Below are positions 1-10,992 of a stretch of 10,992 nucleotides of DNA, in pieces. Under the pieces are notes generated by a model that worked only from the letters and a program-made list of their open reading frames with translations, ran no database searches and was not told the DNA's origin. This DNA comes from a virus (Duplodnaviria > Heunggongvirae > Uroviricota > Caudoviricetes): the IMG/VR virus record IMGVR_UViG_2698536573_000008; one strand, written 5' to 3'. Position 1 is the first letter of the stretch, and each line of letters opens with the position of its first letter. The translations under genes were made by a program, and so were the position numbers.

Positions 1-186
1 CTACCTGCGCGGCGCTGGCTTCTTCCACTGGTAGGCAGGTGCTCGCATCATTTCGCGGAACCTGTCGCGCCGGGCTATATCGGCATTAACTGAGCGTTCT
101 ATCTCCCGTTGATCTGCCTGTGTAAGCTGGTGGCCTCCGTGCTCAAGTTTGGCGATGGTCAATAAGGCTATTTCGCGTGGTGTCAT
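1..186 (-). CDS. small hypothetical protein (61 aa)
   Basis: Complete minus-strand ORF: ATG at 186-184, TAG stop at 3-1 (window edge). RBS-like AGAGGG about 8 nt upstream of the ATG. No recognisable motif. Confidence 0.4.
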   Translation of the reverse strand: MTPREIALLTIAKLEHGGHQLTQADQREIERSVNADIARRDRFREMMRAPAYQWKKPAPRR

Positions 187-247
187 ACGTCATACCCTCT
201 GGAAGGATGAAACACGCCCGGATTAAATTTCATTTTTCGCGGGTATG

Positions 248-306
248 AAAAAACGATGGGGCGGGCAGTCCGGAAGACGTCAGGCCGCAGGGATTTGACC
301 CGCCCC
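248..306 (-). terminator. possible intrinsic terminator or structured element downstream of the PerC-like gene
   Basis: GC-rich inverted repeat GGGGCGGG (258-265) / CCCGCCCC (299-306). On the minus strand it is followed 4 nt later by T6 (plus-strand AAAAAA at 248-253). The 33-nt loop is atypically large, so this may instead be a protein-binding palindrome. Confidence 0.3.
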
Positions 307-320
307 TCCCCACTGGTGGT

Positions 321-602
321 CTACCTTTGCCTATTGCCGCCATTTAACCGGAAGGCGTTACCGTTCGGTTGCGCTATCCCCATGCGGTGTTGCGTTTCGG
401 TAACAGCTTTATGCAGGTCGCCAAAGTCCTCAGCCTTCACGGGCGGGCGCTTCACGTTCTCAAGACACGTTTCACGGCGGCGCTTTATCCATTCCCGATC
501 ATCGTCCTCGGTGCATAACAGCATGACTTCCATCCATCGCGCTGCGGCGCGTCGGTACAGCCCTTTTGCTTCCAGATCCTCGGCTTTACTGTCGTTTACC
601 AT
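321..602 (-). CDS. PerC-family transcriptional regulator-like protein (93 aa)
   Basis: ATG at 602-600, TAG at 323-321. Motifs LEAKGLYRRAAARWMEVML and REWIKRRRETCL resemble the conserved core of PerC/Pch-type small regulators. GGGGGAG RBS about 6 nt upstream. Confidence 0.7.
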   Translation of the reverse strand: MVNDSKAEDLEAKGLYRRAAARWMEVMLLCTEDDDREWIKRRRETCLENVKRPPVKAEDFGDLHKAVTETQHRMGIAQPNGNAFRLNGGNRQR

Positions 603-667
603 GTTTATCTCCCCCAGAATGGCGTTTCATCGTCGAATGGTGGGCGTTGGTCAAAATCATCAGGGGT

Positions 668-673
668 ATTATA
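668..673 (-). promoter_or_regulatory. candidate -10 element (TATAAT on minus strand) upstream of the PerC-like gene
   Basis: Perfect TATAAT hexamer on the minus strand (plus 668-673 attata), about 65 nt upstream of the ATG at 602. No good -35, so it could be activator-dependent. Sequence-only guess. Confidence 0.2.
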
Positions 674-815
674 TAACTCCCATCCAGGCGCGGATTGTGT
701 TGCGTGACCTCCTGTGTGCCTGTAGCCTGGCTGATTCCGGTAATACTGCGGAGTTAGGTCTACCGGCATAGCTTACCCGTGGAGAAATGAATCATCGAAT
801 GAGTTTGGTCGGGAG

Positions 816-1487
816 TTATTCCACCAGCAAAAATGGCGTTGCCCGGTCTATGACGTTGATGCCAATTAACGAGCTAACATTTCGACCATTCACAATGCTA
901 TCCCGTTCAAGCAAATGCGCTATTTTTTCTACTTCATACCAGTATTGAGCCATGAGGGCTTTGGTCTTTTCAACGAGTTTAGAAAGCATTAACTCCCTGT
1001 TAATTTGCTTATCTGTAGCGCAGATTAAATCGAGCATGTCATTTACGTTAGCCATGTCATAGCGATGAGGTAGCGAATACTTTTTGTTGAAAATATCGTT
1101 GTTTTCGTAAAGGGCTTCGCTTACTGGTCCGGCGAGGGATACAAAAGCGGCCTTTTTTGCATCGCGCTTTATACCATCCGCATAGTAACGTATGAAAGGG
1201 ATAACTTTACCATTCTGCCCAACTACACCAGATTTACTATCCCGCAAACGCCCGAGATCGTGGCTGTGAATTATGCTGTGTTTAACAACGCCCAAACACT
1301 TGGCCTCATGTACATGTTCGCCAGCAACGTAACCGTATTCATCCATAACGGCGATAACCTGTATATCTAAGCGAATAAGCCATGCAGCTACTGCATGTCC
1401 CGCTTCGTGGAATGCTACACATCGTTTACCATCACCTATCCAGTTATAGAACATTTCATGCTCATATATCTGGTGAATGGCGCCCAT
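816..1487 (-). CDS. standalone FtsH-like (peptidase M41-type) zinc metallopeptidase domain protein (223 aa)
   Basis: ATG at 1487-1485, TAA at 818-816. HEAGH zinc-binding motif at residues 27-31 in an FtsH-like context (CVAFHEAGHAVAAWL). Downstream MANVNDM resembles the FtsH third-ligand Asp region, and the C-terminal helical region is collinear with the FtsH protease domain. No AAA+ ATPase module. Sampled 60-nt blocks are 37-45% GC, below the backbone. Confidence 0.75.
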   Translation of the reverse strand: MGAIHQIYEHEMFYNWIGDGKRCVAFHEAGHAVAAWLIRLDIQVIAVMDEYGYVAGEHVHEAKCLGVVKHSIIHSHDLGRLRDSKSGVVGQNGKVIPFIRYYADGIKRDAKKAAFVSLAGPVSEALYENNDIFNKKYSLPHRYDMANVNDMLDLICATDKQINRELMLSKLVEKTKALMAQYWYEVEKIAHLLERDSIVNGRNVSSLIGINVIDRATPFLLVE

Positions 1488-2124: not shown

Positions 2125-4566
2125 TCAATCATCACTCTGCCCGCTCTCCACACCGTAAGCGCGTGGCATGAACTCCTCAGCCTTCTCGTTATAGCCAACG
2201 TTGGTTTGCGCTCTGCCGTTAATGCTTCTCGTCAGGTAGCTGGCTCGGTACTCTTTTGCTGCTGATTTTATGGCGCGTGAAAACTTATTGACGGAAAGCG
2301 GTTTACCCAAACCGTGATACTCCATAAACGCCAGATAAAGATGATAAAGATACGTCCTCGGCTCTGGCTGGCCTGCCCATGTACCTCCGCCCATCATCAT
2401 GCCTTTGGGTTCGTTCATGAAAAAAAGCGCCGCACACATATCGACAACCGGATCCGTGCCGCTTTTAACCTCTAGCGCCTCCTGCGAATCGCGCTGCTCT
2501 AGTAATAGTGCCTTTGCTTTGTTCTGGTCGGCAAAGGTGGTTAGCAGGTGGCGGATAATCACCGGGATTTCTCGCCTGATTTTTGCGGTTAAATCCGGGT
2601 CTTTGTCTGCGTCTGATACCGGGTTATTAAACGGGAATATCACGCGGCGGCGGGCAATGCCCCCGTTTCGCTCCGTGAATGTCATCGGCTCGTTATTGGT
2701 TGCCATAACAACGGCATTTATCACGGTTGTGAACTGCTTTTCATATTTCCCATCAATCTCTACCGGATCGCCGCCCGTAATGGCTTTAATCCCCGCCCCC
2801 TCTCCAACATAGCGGGTCTGGTCAGGCATAATAATCAGGCTTTTTCCTACGAACTGCGCCCGTCCCCGTGCGGTGTCCAGCGTCATCATGCTACCGCTGG
2901 CGGTGTTGTGTTCACCTGCCAGCGTGGTTGCTATGCTGCTGAATACGGATTTCCCACTGCCGCCCTCGCCAGTTATCTCAATGAATAGCTGCCAGTCGTG
3001 ACGCTTCGCCAGCACCATAAACAAGGCTGCTTTGATACGCTCGGCCTTATGATGGTCGCCAGCCGTTGCATGATTCAGCCAACGGGTAAAATTGGGGGCG
3101 CTGGTGGTAATATTTTCCCCCAGCGCTGGCGGGGTGTAGGTGATCCCATTGTGGTTCATCAGCCAGTTACCCGGCGAGTGGGCGGAAAACGTCTGCGTAG
3201 CGAGGTCATAAACGCCGTTATCAAAACCAATCAGATCCCCGCTCCGCTCACCAATTACCGGTATTTGCAGCTTCATGGTTGCGACAACCGATTTAATCCC
3301 CTTTTCGGTGTAGTGGGCTTCGTGCTCGTCGAAAATTGCCACCATAACCCTTTCTAATTCGCTGTCTGGTAGCTTCACCCATACGCCAGATTCGTAGCAG
3401 TAAACAGTGCCACTATCAGGGTTAACCGCCAACATATCCCATCGAGATGAAAGCAACCGCGCTTTCTGGCTGGCTGCCATTTGTGCAATATCTCCGACAT
3501 CGGCTTTACGGCGGGATTTACCGCCCTCAATGGCTTGCAATCGCGGTTTCACGGCTTCCCCTTGAATCTGGTACATCGAATCGTTAAACGCAGCCGTAGC
3601 GACTTCCAGCCCGTTTTGCTGGCGGTAGTCGTCCCAGTCGGCTTTGTAGTCTGTCGGCGGCAGCGCCACCCAGCCAGCCACGGATAAGGCGGCTTTCTCT
3701 GCGGCATCTTTGCCCGTGTTCGCCTGGTCGTCCTGCTGGTGGTCGTTATCTGCGGCAATGATAATCTGCGTGGCTGGATATATCCGGCGCATCACTTCGG
3801 CAACGGGTAGCAGGTTGCCCGCGTCAATTGCTGCCACTGCCAGCGCGTCCGGGCGCATCAGGTGAACTGAAAGGGCCGTCGCCAGCCCCTCGGCAATTAA
3901 AACGCTCTGCGGCGATTCTGGCGCGTTTACGGCGTGATATGCCCCGCGCTTTGCTGAACCTGTCAGGAGTCGTTTATCTCCCTGCGGCGTGATGGTCTGC
4001 GCCGCCACTACTGCGCCGGATTCATCCACCAGCGGCAGGAGTAGCGAACCATCAGACATAACCGGGTAATTAAACCCGGTCAGCCCTTTTGATTGCAGGT
4101 AATCAGATTCGCCCTGTGTGACACTCTGGCGCATTCCGGCATACAGACGGGCAAACGTAGCCCTTCGCTGCTCTGCATCCTCTGCTGCCTGTTTCTGGCG
4201 CTCCTGCTCACGCTGCTGGCGGTCAGCTTCCAGTTGCTCTCTTCTATGGCTCGCTGCCACCGGGTCGGTTTCCGCTGCCCGGTAATCAATACCCAGCACA
4301 TCAGCGGCAAGCTGTGCCGCCTCCGTAGTGTCGCAGTTGTTCACCTTCTTAATCAGGTCTAAACCGTCACCAGCGCCACACTGATTGCAGATAAAGCTAC
4401 CGCGCCCGTTGTCGTCGAATCTGAAACGGTCTTTTCCACCACATGCAGGGCATGGAGAATGGCGGCGCGATGAATCAGGCACGTCGATAGACAATCCAGC
4501 CAGCACATAAGGCCAGCGCCCGGCGGCGGCACTGGTCACTTCGCGGATAAGGTCGATATTACGCAT
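2125..4566 (-). CDS. P4 alpha-like DNA primase / helicase (about 813 aa)
   Basis: Long minus ORF. Best start is ATG at 4566 preceded by AGGAGG; the ORF-track start at 4623 is GTG. N-terminal Cys-rich zinc-binding motif (CPACGG...CNQCG), TOPRIM-like acidic motifs (IAEGLATA, AADNDHQQDD), Walker A GEGGSGKS in the C-terminal helicase-like region. TGA at 2127-2125. Confidence 0.93.
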   Translation of the reverse strand: MRNIDLIREVTSAAAGRWPYVLAGLSIDVPDSSRRHSPCPACGGKDRFRFDDNGRGSFICNQCGAGDGLDLIKKVNNCDTTEAAQLAADVLGIDYRAAETDPVAASHRREQLEADRQQREQERQKQAAEDAEQRRATFARLYAGMRQSVTQGESDYLQSKGLTGFNYPVMSDGSLLLPLVDESGAVVAAQTITPQGDKRLLTGSAKRGAYHAVNAPESPQSVLIAEGLATALSVHLMRPDALAVAAIDAGNLLPVAEVMRRIYPATQIIIAADNDHQQDDQANTGKDAAEKAALSVAGWVALPPTDYKADWDDYRQQNGLEVATAAFNDSMYQIQGEAVKPRLQAIEGGKSRRKADVGDIAQMAASQKARLLSSRWDMLAVNPDSGTVYCYESGVWVKLPDSELERVMVAIFDEHEAHYTEKGIKSVVATMKLQIPVIGERSGDLIGFDNGVYDLATQTFSAHSPGNWLMNHNGITYTPPALGENITTSAPNFTRWLNHATAGDHHKAERIKAALFMVLAKRHDWQLFIEITGEGGSGKSVFSSIATTLAGEHNTASGSMMTLDTARGRAQFVGKSLIIMPDQTRYVGEGAGIKAITGGDPVEIDGKYEKQFTTVINAVVMATNNEPMTFTERNGGIARRRVIFPFNNPVSDADKDPDLTAKIRREIPVIIRHLLTTFADQNKAKALLLEQRDSQEALEVKSGTDPVVDMCAALFFMNEPKGMMMGGGTWAGQPEPRTYLYHLYLAFMEYHGLGKPLSVNKFSRAIKSAAKEYRASYLTRSINGRAQTNVGYNEKAEEFMPRAYGVESGQSDD

Positions 4567-6107: not shown

Positions 6108-6283
6108 GCCGCCACCTCACGAACGCGGGTAATCTGGATGTGGGAAAGGCGTTCATTTCTGGCCTGATTTAGCGCCTCAGCTTTGGCGCTGATCGCGCTG
6201 CGGGCGTCAACGATATAAACGAACTCGACTAATTCGCCGCTCCGGGCGGTGGCGCATCCTGCAACACGGAAGTAATTAAGCAT
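6104..6283 (-). CDS. hypothetical small protein (59 aa)
   Basis: ATG at 6283-6281 preceded by GGGGG RBS (MLNYFRVAGC...). The longer track ORF 6104..6520 has an implausible N-terminal extension overlapping the adjacent gene in another frame. Confidence 0.45.
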   Translation of the reverse strand: MLNYFRVAGCATARSGELVEFVYIVDARSAISAKAEALNQARNERLSHIQITRVREVAA

Positions 6284-7187
6284 GTGCGCCCCCTGTGCGA
6301 ATACGTCCGGCAAAAAAGCAAACGTGATCCCGCGCCAGAATGCGGCGGGCTTCCTGCTCAGTCTCTGCGGCGATATGGTGAATTTTGACGGTAATTGTCG
6401 GCATATCGCGGCGAACTGCTGCGATAATCCAGATAAATTGCGGTTTTTGGGTAGGGGTAGTAGCCAGCATAGCGGCAGCCTCTGATTCATGGTTTTGAGA
6501 ACCACCACCGGAAACGCCAATTTCGCTGGTGGTGAACTGTACAGGGTTGGCGTAACCGGGAATCAGAGAAACCGGCGCGGATTGCTCCGCCCCCATACAG
6601 TCCACCATTGAACAGGTGTAACTGCGCGGCACAAAAAAACACGCATGGCGCGTGTTGTGCGCTCTGATAATTACCGGGACGCCAATCCCGACACCAGATT
6701 TTGCTGGTGCGCTATAACCATAAACCGGGTTGGCGATAGTCGGCAAGCCCTTTTTTATGGACTCCAGAAACTCACCTTCGCGCGTGCGCGTACTGTTGCA
6801 TAAATTCCCTGCATCTAGTGGTGATGTCAGAAAAATCTTCCCGCCTCGTGTAGTGATGATGGGAAAATCTTCCTCGCGTAGTGACCCCCAATAAATCTTC
6901 GTGCGCGTACTGGTCTCGAAACTCTCCTCGTCACCACGACGAGAAAATGAGGAGCTGGCATTAGCTGGCACTGTTATGCCAGCTTCGCATTCATGCGCGT
7001 GCGTACTTGTCCCGAAAACACCAAGATTTGTAAAGATCTGGCGGTGGCAAATGTCAGGTTTTGACAGGTTCCAAACGTCGCTATTTGTCGCAATCTGGCG
7101 GCGGGCTGCTTTGCTCCAGACGTTAACATTTGCATACATCAGGCCAGCCAGGGGAAAGGCTTTATTCTGGATGGCGGCATTAAGCAT
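6276..7187 (-). CDS. hypothetical protein, start uncertain (303 codons if started at 7187)
   Basis: C-terminal half (about 6279-6770) has protein-like sequence. The part encoded by about 6772-7105 is densely repetitive DNA and gives low-complexity S/T/R/G-rich translation. The ATG at 7187 overlaps the antirepressor stop (ATGCTTAA) with a GGGGG RBS, but the true start may be internal or non-ATG. Confidence 0.4.
   Translation of the reverse strand: MLNAAIQNKAFPLAGLMYANVNVWSKAARRQIATNSDVWNLSKPDICHRQIFTNLGVFGTSTHAHECEAGITVPANASSSFSRRGDEESFETSTRTKIYWGSLREEDFPIITTRGGKIFLTSPLDAGNLCNSTRTREGEFLESIKKGLPTIANPVYGYSAPAKSGVGIGVPVIIRAHNTRHACFFVPRSYTCSMVDCMGAEQSAPVSLIPGYANPVQFTTSEIGVSGGGSQNHESEAAAMLATTPTQKPQFIWIIAAVRRDMPTITVKIHHIAAETEQEARRILARDHVCFFAGRIRTGGAHA
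6772..6945. repeat. degenerate tandem repeat array, period about 26-32 bp, 5-7 units
   Basis: Units begin near 6772, 6803, 6833, 6865, 6893, 6919 with shared AAAT(C)TTC(C) plus GTAGTGA/GTACTG cores. Exact 13-mer CGTGCGCGTACTG at 6783-6795 and 6900-6912, with a variant GCGCGTGCGTACTTG near 6994-7008. Confidence 0.6.
6953..6984. promoter_or_regulatory. operator-like cluster: AGCTGGCA x2 direct plus inverted copy TGCCAGCT
   Basis: AGCTGGCA at 6953-6960 and 6963-6970; TGCCAGCT at 6977-6984. Copies 2 and 3 form a perfect 8-bp inverted repeat with a 6-nt spacer. Confidence 0.4.
7052..7070. promoter_or_regulatory. bipartite 19-nt motif TGTCAGGTTTTGACAGGTT (copy 2 of 2)
   Basis: 17/19 identical to 1796-1814; the two differences fall at the same relative position in each half-site. 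Flanked by a direct repeat ATTTGT-N4-ATCTGGCGG (7026-7044 and 7083-7101). Confidence 0.4.
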
Positions 7188-8013
7188 GATTAGCCCCCAG
7201 ATGTTTAGCTAACCAGCGCTGAGAGAGGCGGATTAGCTCGGCTTTACGCAGGTCATATCCCATACCCATATCAATTAACGTGATATTGGTGCTTTCGAGA
7301 TAGGCGAGGTGTTCAAGCTGTGCTGCGTTCATGCTGTCCCGTGGTTCGCCAGTAATGCCATTTGCCTGCGCCCACTGCTTCGCCGTCATGCCACCCAGCA
7401 CGATACGGGCGATCATGTTGCTCTCGTTGCTGTAGTGGCGCTGCTGCGTCGTTTTACCCAGCTCGGCACGGGCCATATTCAGCGCATCGCACATCGGCTT
7501 AAAGTTGTTTGCGGCACTGATACGGGCTTTTAGCTGGCGACGATAGCGGGCGGCGATTTCAGGCACGCTACGCTGTAATTCTTCCTCGCACTGGATGAAA
7601 TAACGACGGATAGCGCGACCCTGATCATTGCGTTCGATCATTGCCAGTTCTTTCGCCATTCCGACACTTAACAGATAGTCTTTGCCGGGTCTGCCAGACT
7701 GCTTAATCTTGCTGTAAGCCGCGCCATTCGGGCTTTTCCCCAGATTTGGGGAAATTGTTTTATGGACTGAGTAATCGTGCCCAATGGTGAAGTCATATTC
7801 AGAGATGCGATCAGTGATCCATGTAGAGAAGTCTTTTCCCACGCCCAACGCTTTGTGTAACGCTTTTGCGCTAACAATATTGGTTTCACGCCCACCGATA
7901 TGACCAGGAATAACCGGGACAATTGTGGCAAATTCATTACCGTTAATTGTTCCCTGATAGGCGTTCAGATGAGGGGCGGCCTCAGAAATTAATCTGCTTT
8001 TTTCGATGTTCAT
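7180..8013 (-). CDS. phage antirepressor-like protein with AntA/Rha-type N-terminal domain (277 aa)
   Basis: ATG at 8013-8011, TAA at 7182-7180. N-terminal SAKALHKALGVGKDFSTWITDRISEYDFTIGHDY ... GRPGKDYLLSVGMAKELAMIE resembles the AntA/Rha antirepressor domain. C-terminal half unassigned. Confidence 0.65.
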   Translation of the reverse strand: MNIEKSRLISEAAPHLNAYQGTINGNEFATIVPVIPGHIGGRETNIVSAKALHKALGVGKDFSTWITDRISEYDFTIGHDYSVHKTISPNLGKSPNGAAYSKIKQSGRPGKDYLLSVGMAKELAMIERNDQGRAIRRYFIQCEEELQRSVPEIAARYRRQLKARISAANNFKPMCDALNMARAELGKTTQQRHYSNESNMIARIVLGGMTAKQWAQANGITGEPRDSMNAAQLEHLAYLESTNITLIDMGMGYDLRKAELIRLSQRWLAKHLGANHA

Positions 8014-8025
8014 TTTCAGTCTCCG

Positions 8026-8460
8026 TTAGGCGGCGGTGAGATTGTCCGGGTATAGGTTGAGAATGTCGGCAATTTCAGGCTGAGAAAGTCCCTGATAGCC
8101 GCCAGCGTCGGCGTTATGGTTCACAAGCCGAATAACTTTTAGAACGTCACCGCGCCCGGTAAAGCGATAGCGTAAATGTGACCCTATCCCGTCGGGGTTC
8201 TTTTCGTCTATACGCTCAAGCTGAATATCAAGCCTGCGCTCTAACTCGCTGGCGTAGTTCCTTCCAGATGAAAGGCGGCAATATCGCAGAATGTCGTTTT
8301 CTGTCCATCCCTCTACGCCAGTACGCAGCATATAGACGCGGGCGCGGTGTTTCTTTGGGGTTCGCTTAGGTACTTGTACCGGGCTGGTGGTCGGCGTAAT
8401 ATCAGACGTGCGAATATCTGAGTTAGCCGCCTGCTGTACGGGGCGGTTTTTCTTTTTCAT
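8026..8460 (-). CDS. hypothetical protein (144 aa), basic N-terminus
   Basis: ATG at 8460-8458 overlapping the AlpA stop (TAATG). Lys/Arg/Pro-rich N-terminal region. No motif recognised. Confidence 0.6.
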   Translation of the reverse strand: MKKKNRPVQQAANSDIRTSDITPTTSPVQVPKRTPKKHRARVYMLRTGVEGWTENDILRYCRLSSGRNYASELERRLDIQLERIDEKNPDGIGSHLRYRFTGRGDVLKVIRLVNHNADAGGYQGLSQPEIADILNLYPDNLTAA

Positions 8461-8663
8461 TACGCCACCTTTCCCCGGCGCTCCGCCAGCCAGTTATTAA
8501 TCTCTACCGCATCAAAGGCGGTAATCTTCTCCCCCAGCTTTACCGGGCGCGGTAGCGAGCCGCTGCGAACTTTGCGATCAATGGTTGAAACACTAACGCC
8601 CAGCAATTCAGCAAGGCGGAAGCGTCTGATATAGCCTTTTGTAGGGATAGTGTCGATGTTCAT
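8460..8663 (-). CDS. alpA: AlpA-family phage transcriptional regulator / excisionase-like HTH protein (67 aa)
   Basis: ATG at 8663-8661, TAA at 8462-8460. HTH region LAELLGVSVSTIDRKVRSGSLPRPVKLGEKITAFDAVEINNWL matches the AlpA/excisionase-family pattern. Position after int is typical of P4-like and PICI elements. Confidence 0.8.
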   Translation of the reverse strand: MNIDTIPTKGYIRRFRLAELLGVSVSTIDRKVRSGSLPRPVKLGEKITAFDAVEINNWLAERRGKVA

Positions 8664-8769: not shown

Positions 8770-9720
8770 TTAACTATCCACTTTGCCATTTGCCGCAGAT
8801 CGCAGCTGTTTAAGAATTACATCTTCATTAGTTATCATAAGTGGTGGAACTTCGTCTAAATGACGAACAAGACAGTCACGCCACTTCTCAGGGCTTATTT
8901 CTTTCCTTACTCCCCTGCATTCATTTGGATACTTACTAAGTATATAAATTGCAGATTTTAATAGTTTCTCCCTATTGACTGCGTACCGTTCGGCACGTTT
9001 ATTAACTTTTAGCGTATTTATATCATTGGATAACTTGTTTGCGGGTGGTTTGTGCATGGGTCTGTCATAAATATATTTTCCTCCATTTATAAGAAGATTG
9101 TATTCATAGTCAGTTATATACATTTTATTTCGGCTTATTTCATACCAGCCGTCAATATAAAAAGCTCCGATTTCATAATTATTCGATTTGCTAAACTCGT
9201 CACATCTCGGAGGCGTCAGTTCGCATACGGAGATCTCCCAATCATCCCATTCTGATAGCTCCCGCTCATCGTTATCTATGAACGCAGACGGAATTGCTAA
9301 TAGACCGTTCCATCTTTCGATATCTCTTTCATCCTTCCCAACATTGTATCGCTCTATAACTGAGAAATGTTCTGATTTGTATGAAAACCTCATAAAATAC
9401 ATATGGTTATCGCTATTTTTATAATCAAGCGGTGATAAGCCATATGATTCGAGATTATCTGCCTCATTGCTCAGATTAAGAAGATAATTCTCATGTGCTG
9501 CTTTTGTATCTATATGAAAAATACTATCTGTTTCAACTTTAAGTAATTCTGGGTCGGCATCTTCATTTTTGGGGTAATGGTAAAACAATTCAATAGGTGG
9601 AATTTTTATACATATTTCTAAAACCCCAATTGCTGCATAGTGTATTAAATCGGATACTTCACATCCGGCCAGTTTGGCTGCTTTATCCAAAGAATAATAT
9701 TTATGCGCAGGTAATTTCAT
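8770..9720 (-). CDS. AT-rich orphan protein (316 aa), possible N-terminal HTH; candidate accessory or anti-phage cargo
   Basis: ATG at 9720-9718 (GAGAGGAAAG upstream), TAA at 8772-8770. Hand-counted GC about 23-37% in sampled 60-nt blocks versus about 60% in the primase. N-terminal YYSLDKAAKLAGCEVSDLIHYAAIGVL resembles an excisionase/MerR-type HTH. The rest is acidic and Tyr/Trp-rich with no catalytic motif recognised. Starts 18 nt after the integrase stop. Confidence 0.8.
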   Translation of the reverse strand: MKLPAHKYYSLDKAAKLAGCEVSDLIHYAAIGVLEICIKIPPIELFYHYPKNEDADPELLKVETDSIFHIDTKAAHENYLLNLSNEADNLESYGLSPLDYKNSDNHMYFMRFSYKSEHFSVIERYNVGKDERDIERWNGLLAIPSAFIDNDERELSEWDDWEISVCELTPPRCDEFSKSNNYEIGAFYIDGWYEISRNKMYITDYEYNLLINGGKYIYDRPMHKPPANKLSNDINTLKVNKRAERYAVNREKLLKSAIYILSKYPNECRGVRKEISPEKWRDCLVRHLDEVPPLMITNEDVILKQLRSAANGKVDS

Positions 9721-9738: not shown

Positions 9739-10992
9739 TCATGCTCTGATTGGCGTTACGTTGTAGTCTTTTCCGCTTTCCAGTGCCACCAGCAAATCAC
9801 ACCACTGCGCCAGCGCCGCTTTACGCTCATCAAAATACTGGTGACGGTTATAGATACCTTCCACGCCTTTAATTTTGTGATTAAGGCATCTTTCTGCGAC
9901 TACCGGATCAACGCCCAGCGCTGCTAAATGAGTACGTGCGGTGCGTCGGAAGTCGTGAATCGTGAAATTAGGCACATCAGGCATTTCAGCGCGAACCTTA
10001 GCCAGTGCTACGGGTAAAGTGCTTTCCTGAATATGTGGGATCATTCTGTTTTGCATCTTCCTGGCTGGAAGCACCCATGCGCTGTTGCATGAGAACGTTT
10101 TAAGCTCTCTCAGCCATTCGACGGCTGGCGGTGCTAATGGGATGTCTATAGCGTCGCCGTTTTTGCTGCGTTCCTCTGGTAAATGCCATACGGCTTTATC
10201 AAAATCGAACTCCTCCCAGCGGGCGGCGCATAACTCCATTTTGCGGACGCATAACGCTAACAGTAATTTGAACGTGATTTCGTTCTGACGGCTGAATCCC
10301 TTAGCCGTGCGCATAGCCTGAAACAGTCGGATTAGTTCGCCACGTGTTAACCAGCGGTCGCGGGAAACTTCTTTCCCTCCGGCGTCTGCCACCTCAAAGG
10401 CTGAACACGGGTTAATCTCCAGTGCGTGCCGCTTAATGCCGTAGTCAAATATGCGGCGTGTCCAGCGCAGAACGTCCGTTGCTATGGTCGGCGCTCCACG
10501 GTCAACAATACTTTTCAGCATGTCGTCGATATGGCGCGGCTTCACGTCCTCCACCTTCATGCTGCCAATGCATGGGTTTATATCTTTGTCGATACGGCGG
10601 CGGAGTATATCGGGGTGCTTCCAGCGCGGGAGGATCTGACGCTCAAAGTATTCAGCGGCAAGCTCTGAAACGCGCATAGCGTTCTTCTCTGCTTCCATCT
10701 TCGCCAGTGCTTCGGTTTTGCGCTTCTGCTTCTCTCCTGCAACGTCATAGCCCAGCGCAACGCGAGCCGATAGCTCTTTGGCTGTCTCTCTGGCCTTTGA
10801 TAGTGATAGCTCGGCATATGAGCCAATCAGCATGGCGCGGGGTTTCCCTGCGAATTTATAGCGGAATCGCCAGACGGGGGTCTGGTAGTTTTCGCGGTAT
10901 GAAAGATAAAGCCCGTTACCGTCAGAGCGTCCCTCGAATCGCTCCCCGGCCTTTATCCATGCGCGGATCTGCATGTCTGTGAGTTTTGGCAT
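9739..10992 (-). CDS. int: P4-type tyrosine integrase (417 aa)
   Basis: ATG at 10992-10990 (window edge), TGA at 9741-9739. N-terminal arm-binding-type motifs (DGNGLYLSY, WRFRYKFAGKPR, LSLSKARE). C-terminal catalytic region HDFRRTARTHL with tyrosine in GIYNRHQY. Confidence 0.93.
   Translation of the reverse strand: MPKLTDMQIRAWIKAGERFEGRSDGNGLYLSYRENYQTPVWRFRYKFAGKPRAMLIGSYAELSLSKARETAKELSARVALGYDVAGEKQKRKTEALAKMEAEKNAMRVSELAAEYFERQILPRWKHPDILRRRIDKDINPCIGSMKVEDVKPRHIDDMLKSIVDRGAPTIATDVLRWTRRIFDYGIKRHALEINPCSAFEVADAGGKEVSRDRWLTRGELIRLFQAMRTAKGFSRQNEITFKLLLALCVRKMELCAARWEEFDFDKAVWHLPEERSKNGDAIDIPLAPPAVEWLRELKTFSCNSAWVLPARKMQNRMIPHIQESTLPVALAKVRAEMPDVPNFTIHDFRRTARTHLAALGVDPVVAERCLNHKIKGVEGIYNRHQYFDERKAALAQWCDLLVALESGKDYNVTPIRA

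Follow-up and report, generated by a model that had tools for sequence, protein, structure and literature searches.

Our analyses of a 10,992-nucleotide stretch of DNA (the window) showed that the open reading frame at positions 321 to 602 of the minus strand is a real gene and that its assignment to the PerC family is correct. We put the probability of the following reading at about 0.5: the gene, here called perC, is allelic to EcCIMP1_025 and belongs to the backbone of a phage-inducible chromosomal island (PICI), and its product is an ANR-like modulator that binds H-NS- or AraC-family proteins and damps virulence regulons, not an activator of ler.

The reading frame runs from ATG to stop over 93 codons and carries the core KGLYRRAAARW together with REWIKRRRETCL. 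In a profile search, its product matched Pfam PF06069 (PerC) at an E value of 4.5e-30 and 104.2 bits against a cut-off of 22.6, with residues 1 to 86 aligned to profile positions 1 to 86 of 90; a 93-residue PerC-family protein with a conserved core, as the preliminary description had proposed from the letters of the DNA, is therefore encoded here. A search of phage protein families returned phrog_994 (E = 1.6e-36), RefSeq labels the gene of E. coli O6:H16 M9682-C1 a "PerC family transcriptional regulator" (WP_032236946.1), and the open reading frame list, the identity with EcCIMP1_025, a structure model, and dN/dS all support the call. Alignments with EPEC PerC, PchA, and PchE displayed the hallmarks of the family, namely an N-terminal KG-L/F-YRRAA-x-RW, a conserved cysteine, a C-terminal MG...FR, and a length of about 90 residues; D4, A7, L10, E11, K13, G14, Y16, R17, R18, A19, A20, R22, W23, M27, R36, C46, R52, G75, and F84 are invariant. 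Carriage on mobile elements is a further shared feature, with the window gene on an island and its homologs on satellites, plasmids, and prophages; members of the family are found on 378 plasmid records as well as among phage protein families. The values of dN/dS against close alleles (0.07 to 0.26) and of dN against Klebsiella and Salmonella orthologs (0.23 to 0.27, with synonymous sites saturated) indicate that perC is under purifying selection. A 171-residue open reading frame on the plus strand (256 to 771), antisense to perC, was taken as a chance frame in GC-rich sequence, since the perC frame has the strong family match. PADLOC recognized no known defense family in perC or in the neighboring reading frames of the island.

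The window matches the chromosome of E. coli O6:H16 M9682-C1 (NZ_CP024275.1) at 100% identity; there, the island is inserted between yicC and dinD. All island genes lie on one strand, the minus strand of the window, starting at the yicC-proximal end with a tyrosine integrase (9739 to 10992; profile searches and RefSeq) and an AT-rich reading frame of 316 codons. These are followed by an AlpA-family regulator (8460 to 8663), a conserved 144-residue protein (8026 to 8460), and an AntA/AntB antirepressor (7180 to 8013); this block (7180 to 8663) is the regulatory head of the island operon, and the same order was also found in Salmonella and Klebsiella islands. The middle of the island holds isrK (6634 to 6710) and a C4 antisense RNA (6525 to 6612), which scored 81.1 and 76.7 bits in Rfam, both above the gathering scores, and which form a P1/P4-type RNA immunity module (6525 to 6710) between the antirepressor and an Icd-like gene; the Icd-like gene and small reading frames come next, and then a P4-family primase-helicase (2125 to 4566; TIGR01613, E = 1e-31; domains Zn_Ribbon_Prim, Toprim_3, D5_N, and DUF5906), the replication gene of the island, which lies upstream of perC in the same orientation. 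The order ends with a 66-codon reading frame and a 223-residue HEAGH protein (together at 816 to 1687, from the reading frame list, profile searches, and RefSeq, which calls the smaller one as 57 residues at 1487 to 1660), a 54-codon reading frame, perC, and a conserved hypothetical gene of 61 codons (1 to 186; WP_000188903.1) that is identical in EcCIMP1; a pRiA4b ORF-3 family gene lies beyond it, outside the window. The integrase, AlpA, and primase genes are intact and co-oriented, the element agrees with EcCIMP1-type PICIs in its size class (about 10 to 15 kb) and in having no phage structural or lysis genes, and the gene order of the window matches that of EcCIMP1 and of islands in Salmonella and Klebsiella. 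Judged by this gene content, the island is an EcCIMP1-like PICI, a satellite with a P4-type primase, which bears out the earlier suggestion that the regulator is carried by a mobile island. EcCIMP1 itself is induced, excised, and packaged by its helper phage Kapi1 (PMC11773190).

Several other features of the island deserve mention in their own right. RefSeq annotates a 303-residue "host cell division inhibitor Icd-like protein" at 6276 to 7187 (minus strand) that spans the C4 and isrK Rfam matches and looks like an over-extended call; the real gene is probably its last 64 or so codons (about 6276 to 6470), directly after C4, as in P1/P4 immunity regions, and the Icd-like protein annotated in EcCIMP1 has 64 residues. 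The 316-codon reading frame (8770 to 9720, minus strand), between the integrase and alpA, has a G+C content of 36 to 43%, compared with about 53% in the rest of the island, and matched no Pfam, NCBIfam, PHROG, or PADLOC family; because this slot is variable in related islands, where it holds reading frames of unrelated lengths (283, 313, and 272 residues), it may be a hotspot for cargo or defense genes. The 223-residue protein (816 to 1487, minus strand) has a zinc-metalloprotease-like HEAGH motif near its N terminus and resembles FtsH/M41 peptidases weakly, below the threshold; some genomes label it a "peptidase M41 family protein". It belongs to no Pfam, PHROG, or PADLOC family, and since it occupies the slot of ssb in related islands, its role may be accessory or anti-phage. 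A second, divergent copy of dinD lies at the island end beside the chromosomal dinD, just outside the window start (NZ_CP024275.1, 4011211 to 4012035; locus L001, 6027 to 6851, minus strand); it matches the PADLOC candidate defense family PDC-S13 (E = 3e-126), and dinD is duplicated at the same site in strain GN4143.

Immediately upstream of perC lies the 54-codon reading frame (605 to 769, minus strand), which RefSeq leaves unannotated. Its tail, ending in HATQSAPGWELYNTPDDFDQRPPFDDETPF, corresponds to the C terminus of SSB as encoded intact by the GN4143 island, the match covering its last 30 residues and including the acidic DDETPF tip; the frame is thus the 3' remnant of the satellite ssb, with the 5' part replaced by the 66-codon frame and the 223-residue protein and the stop codon mutated, which added WGR. 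It was also considered as a coupled partner gene of perC and, being derived from ssb, was rejected as such. Its present stop codon (605 to 607) is 2 nucleotides ahead of the perC ATG, and the Shine-Dalgarno sequence of perC (GGGGGAG at 609 to 615, minus strand), read from the sequence and conserved in related islands, falls within its 3' end; for these two reasons perC looks like a member of an operon. The preliminary description had credited the gene with a candidate promoter of its own, which our analysis did not confirm: a sigma-70 scan of the minus strand from 603 to 975 gave no promoter, and the sole promoter-like feature upstream, by sequence reading and scan, is a lone TATAAT (668 to 673, minus strand) without a -35 partner, created by a synonymous AAC-to-AAT change in the ssb-derived coding sequence.

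A GC-rich hairpin with a T-tract had likewise been described downstream of the gene. The structure is there (248 to 306, minus strand), with an 8-bp stem in which GGGGCGGG (299 to 306) pairs with CCCGCCCC (258 to 265) around an interior of 33 nucleotides, followed by six T residues at 248 to 253, but it is unexceptional: owing to the 33-nucleotide loop it was not called by the terminator scan, and its folding energy is no better than that of shuffled sequences (z of -0.4 to -0.5). Hairpin and T-tract possibly serve as a weak intrinsic terminator that separates perC from the gene after it. In EcCIMP1, about 165 nucleotides separate the perC stop codon from the corresponding hairpin, of which the 3' arm and the T-tract are conserved. 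The segment of about 100 nucleotides that contains both elements (213 to 316) also stands alone, unannotated, in many E. coli genomes that do not have this perC allele, and seems to be an intergenic module conserved among related islands, located upstream of the 61-codon gene.

The position of perC recurs far beyond this strain. In a species scan that used one genome per species, relatives were found at 31 loci in at least 12 genera of Enterobacterales. In E. coli GN4143, Salmonella, Klebsiella, a circular Klebsiella episome, and Sakai Sp7 (pchE), the gene directly upstream of perC is ssb or proQ/finO-like and either overlaps it or ends at most 13 nucleotides before it. Of the 25 loci for which enough sequence upstream was available, 17 encode a P4/DUF927-type primase on the same strand within 5 kb upstream, and all eight loci with at least 80% identity belong to this ssb/proQ-primase backbone. 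Such recurrent synteny identifies perC as a backbone gene of the satellite lineage and sets it apart from sporadic virulence cargo driven by a promoter of its own; the gene spacing suggests that it is probably cotranscribed with the replication module.

Two further observations concern this neighborhood. A 22,859-bp circular "plasmid" of Klebsiella pneumoniae (NZ_CP033626.1) is a complete copy of the satellite family, with genes for an integrase, AlpA, AntA, an Icd-like protein, a primase, SSB, PerC, a superinfection immunity protein, a tape-measure-like protein, and pRiA4b ORF-3; it is reminiscent of the plasmid state of P4 and may represent an episomal or excised form of the satellite. In Salmonella islands (loci L010 to L012, 8520 to 9008) and some conjugative plasmids (IncK2/Z; locus L017, 6259 to 6882), a gene for a ProQ/FinO-family RNA-binding protein takes the place of ssb beside perC; pairings of a PerC-family gene with one for a small nucleic-acid-binding protein thus recur on different mobile elements.

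A fixed slot after ssb/proQ and the primase, kept in at least 12 genera and two PICI lineages, would also be expected of a factor in the life cycle of the satellite, made with the replication module after helper induction and directed at the DNA or regulators of the island or its helper. It might, for instance, free the island from H-NS silencing or tune helper gene expression, and virulence effects would then be side effects of overexpression. The tight spacing to the upstream gene, the purifying selection, a distribution independent of LEE and pathotype, and the occurrence of the family on plasmids and among phage protein families all agree with this account. Against it, Pick et al. treated the perC gene as accessory, and PerC is variably present among EcCIMP1-like elements (PMC11773190). 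As a complete explanation we consider it possible but rather unlikely; it is compatible with the reading of perC as an ANR-like modulator and may be the selective reason behind it.

The closest relative with a known effect on virulence genes is EcCIMP1_025 (WP_000617443.1) of E. coli MP1, which shares 85 of 93 residues (91%) with the window protein over its full length. The two islands have the same architecture and identical downstream 61-residue and pRiA4b ORF-3 proteins, and both PerC proteins score near the threshold of the ANR profile. They differ by eight substitutions, five of them within the first 12 residues, and in their surroundings: the ssb remnant and HEAGH module precede the window gene, whereas about 700 nucleotides of noncoding DNA and a divergent HTH gene precede the EcCIMP1 copy, which probably has its own promoter; the window island occupies the yicC-dinD site of an ETEC strain, and EcCIMP1 a tRNA-Thr next to proA in a commensal. 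When EcCIMP1_025 was expressed in Citrobacter rodentium, it silenced a LEE1-lux fusion in a dose-dependent manner, while EPEC perC activated the fusion in the same assay (Pick, Stadel and Raivio, ISME J 2025, PMC11773190). Cross-talk of the window gene with host virulence regulation, raised in the preliminary description, is a real possibility, but the implied direction, activation of ler, is not supported, given the effect of this 91%-identical ortholog and an identity of only 34 to 35% to the known activators. The LEE1 repression was obtained by plasmid overexpression of the ortholog in a heterologous species, and the window allele differs from it by the eight residues noted above.

EPEC PerC, encoded in the per operon of the EAF virulence plasmid, and PchA of EHEC are 35% and 34% identical to the window protein, respectively. 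They share with it the Pfam family, a similar length, the N-terminal core D-x-x-A-x-x-LE-x-KG-x-YRRAA-x-RW, C46, the C-terminal MG...FR motif, and carriage on mobile elements. They differ from it in lacking W38 and C30, in their location (a virulence plasmid for PerC and lambdoid prophages of EHEC for PchA/B/C, compared with a primase satellite), and in function, PerC and PchA/B/C being activators of LEE1/ler and the closest tested ortholog of the window protein having the opposite effect. PchE (ECs1588), from the capsid-forming PICI EcCIEDL933 (Sakai Sp7/CP-933C/O-island 51), is closer to the window protein, at 47% identity; it too is a satellite-borne PerC-family gene, located 10 nucleotides after ssb and downstream of a primase, and, as reported by Pick et al. 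from Porter 2005 (PMC11773190), it is not an activator of LEE1. It differs in lacking W38, and its island also has capsid and terminase genes and RgdR, none of which was seen in the window. That paper also says, again with reference to Porter 2005, that LEE1 fusions did not respond to the PerC-like genes of EcCIEDL933 and EcCICFT073. PerC variants had already been described on some E. coli PICIs by Fillol-Salom et al. 2018 (PMC6092414).

Clear membership in the PerC family and the shared KGLYRRAAxRW core would fit an anti-silencing activator of the Pch/PerC type, one that displaces H-NS at ler-like promoters and switches on acquired virulence genes. Pch and PerC do activate LEE1 by relieving H-NS silencing, Pch altering H-NS nucleoprotein complexes (PMC4764244), and some PICI-borne PerC variants have been reported as LEE activators (PMC6092414). 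We regard this account as improbable for the window gene, given the low identity to the activators, the repression of LEE1 by the close ortholog, and the presence in the window protein of W38, an ANR signature residue absent from PerC and PchA. The distribution of LEE speaks against it as well. A chimeric query that joined an island anchor to ler and escN matched NZ_CP024275.1 at the anchor only, and no plasmid in the collection matched it, so that the host has no LEE; ler and escN, which would have provided the proposed target in the host genome, were not found.

The perC allele occurs once per genome, always on the chromosome, in 353 of 5426 complete E. coli genomes (about 6.5%), whose hosts include ETEC H10407, O111 STEC, commensals, and animal and environmental isolates. 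A co-occurrence query that joined window positions 1 to 602 to ler matched 1896 genomes, a count confounded by the 213-316 element, and the query was therefore repeated with the perC coding sequence and ler, which matched 983 genomes at 1039 places; from these figures, roughly 50 genomes carry both the allele and ler. LEE-positive strains thus make up about 50 of some 340 to 353 carriers (about 15%), compared with a background of about 690 of 5426 genomes (about 13%), which reveals no association between the allele and LEE; about 85% of the E. coli genomes with the allele do not have ler. Cross-talk with LEE is possible in certain strains, such as those of serotype O111:H8, but cannot account for the maintenance of perC. 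That the gene is merely an inert relic in a decaying island, as the truncated ssb next to it and the want of a consensus promoter might suggest, is highly improbable in view of its intact reading frame, strong Shine-Dalgarno sequence, low dN/dS, retention as a single-copy allele in 353 complete genomes, and the intact integrase, AlpA, and primase genes around it.

The reading of the window protein as an ANR-like modulator draws on its resemblance to the ANR family (Aar of EAEC, Cnr-1 and Cnr-2 of ETEC, and Rnr of C. rodentium and EPEC), members of which bind the dimerization region of AraC-family activators such as Rns, CfaD, and RegA (PMC4983702). ANR-family hits of EcCIMP1_025 were noted by Pick et al. 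(PMC11773190), and its phenotype, repression of LEE, is that of Rnr and Aar; Rnr also binds H-NS and Ler (PMC10148876). The NCBIfam ANR profile (NF033650) matched residues 6 to 50 of the window protein at 28.5 bits (E = 9.8e-7), below its curated cut-off of 32 bits. EcCIMP1_025 scored 31.1 bits, EPEC PerC 18.2, and PchA 13.6, and a Klebsiella homolog that is 76% identical to the window protein scored 32.5, above the cut-off, and is named ANR by NCBI; 33 of 43 members of the subfamily matched at an E value of 1e-3 or better. Seven of the eight invariant residues (A, E, A, W, A, W, R, and C) of the ANR signature, which spans three helices, are present in the window protein and five in EPEC PerC, as counted by eye against the published signature (PMC4983702) on an ungapped alignment with Cnr. 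They are A7, E11, A19, W23, W38, R42, and C46, with V26 in place of the third alanine. E37-W38 aligns with E44-W45 of Aar, a pair required for the Aar-Aar interaction, or oligomerization (PMC4983702); PerC, PchA, and PchE have no tryptophan at this position.

A structure model built from 43 homologs predicted helices at residues 5 to 12, 16 to 29, and 33 to 51, with pLDDT values of 83 to 90, which form an N-terminal three-helix domain (residues 5 to 51) like that of ANR proteins; the C-terminal half is poorly defined, with a fourth predicted helix at 63 to 73. The three-helix domain superimposed on the model of a phage ANR-family protein with an rmsd of 0.8 Å over 48 columns, at a Foldseek E value of 0.43, as expected for a tiny helical domain. 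Sequence and fold searches of the PDB gave only non-significant helical-repeat, TPR, or MIT-like matches. When the profile of satellite PerC proteins was aligned with that of the Aar/Cnr clade by hhalign, the match was weak (E = 0.019, probability 2.4%), the ANR profile here being narrow because a homology search seeded with the host Cnr yielded just 11 close relatives, and local HMMs gave about 6 bits between the two groups. In view of these weak profile-profile and local HMM scores, the window protein was not filed as a member of the ANR family. It also departs from the ANR definition of less than 10 kDa and three alpha-helices only, having 93 residues, a fourth predicted helix, and a conserved C-terminal extension of about 40 residues that ANR proteins lack; moreover, it is 21 to 23% identical to the host's own Cnr proteins, and its gene lies in a satellite backbone, not beside or under the control of an AraC-family partner.

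The host is an ETEC strain. Besides LT, STh, EtpBA, and CS3 fimbriae, its 100-kb plasmid has the gene for the AraC-family regulator Rns (WP_000346363.1, the accession given for Rns by Santiago et al.) and two ANR-family genes. On this plasmid (NZ_CP024277.1; locus L008, 19463 to 20652 and 47156 to 47353), rns is annotated as cfaD and adjoined by one divergent ANR-family gene, and the second ANR gene lies elsewhere, beside CS3 fimbrial genes; the host thus already has two bona fide ANR proteins besides the satellite PerC. We infer that perC would be transcribed with the replication operon of the island and not from a promoter of its own, so that its product would be made mainly on island induction. 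Its N-terminal three-helix domain would serve as an ANR-like module for protein-protein interaction that binds H-NS-family proteins, the dimerization region of AraC/XylS proteins, or both, rather than a particular DNA site. Overall, horizontally acquired virulence regulons would be damped, including LEE where it is present; in the ETEC host, H-NS and the plasmid-borne Rns regulon (CS3 and CexE) would be plausible targets.

The reading that needs the fewest assumptions is that PerC and ANR proteins as a whole group act through protein contacts with H-NS- and AraC-family regulators and that the satellite subfamily stands on the ANR-like, repressing side. A bolder extension, which we offer tentatively and do not consider the probable outcome, is that satellite PerC proteins link the PerC/Pch activators to the ANR anti-activators, now handled as separate families, within one three-helix superfamily that binds H-NS- or AraC-family regulators. 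The gene would then be a backbone part, not cargo, of a widespread satellite lineage. Upon induction of the island in the ETEC host, its product would act on Rns and H-NS as the third ANR-like factor in the cell, lowering the expression of colonization factors, and would serve the satellite by remodeling the H-NS silencing of the island or its helper.

The gene is already annotated, satellite PerC variants were reported in 2018 (PMC6092414), and its allele group was tested in 2025 (PMC11773190). What our results correct is the assumption that the label "PerC family transcriptional activator" means activation of ler: the effect of the nearest relative tested so far is the opposite one, and LEE is absent from most carriers. 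What interest remains concerns the continuity between PerC and ANR proteins and the backbone position of the gene, both of which suggest a satellite function and an effect on the Rns regulon in ETEC. If the ANR-like reading is true, small anti-virulence or H-NS-modulating proteins would commonly travel on phage satellites throughout the Enterobacterales.
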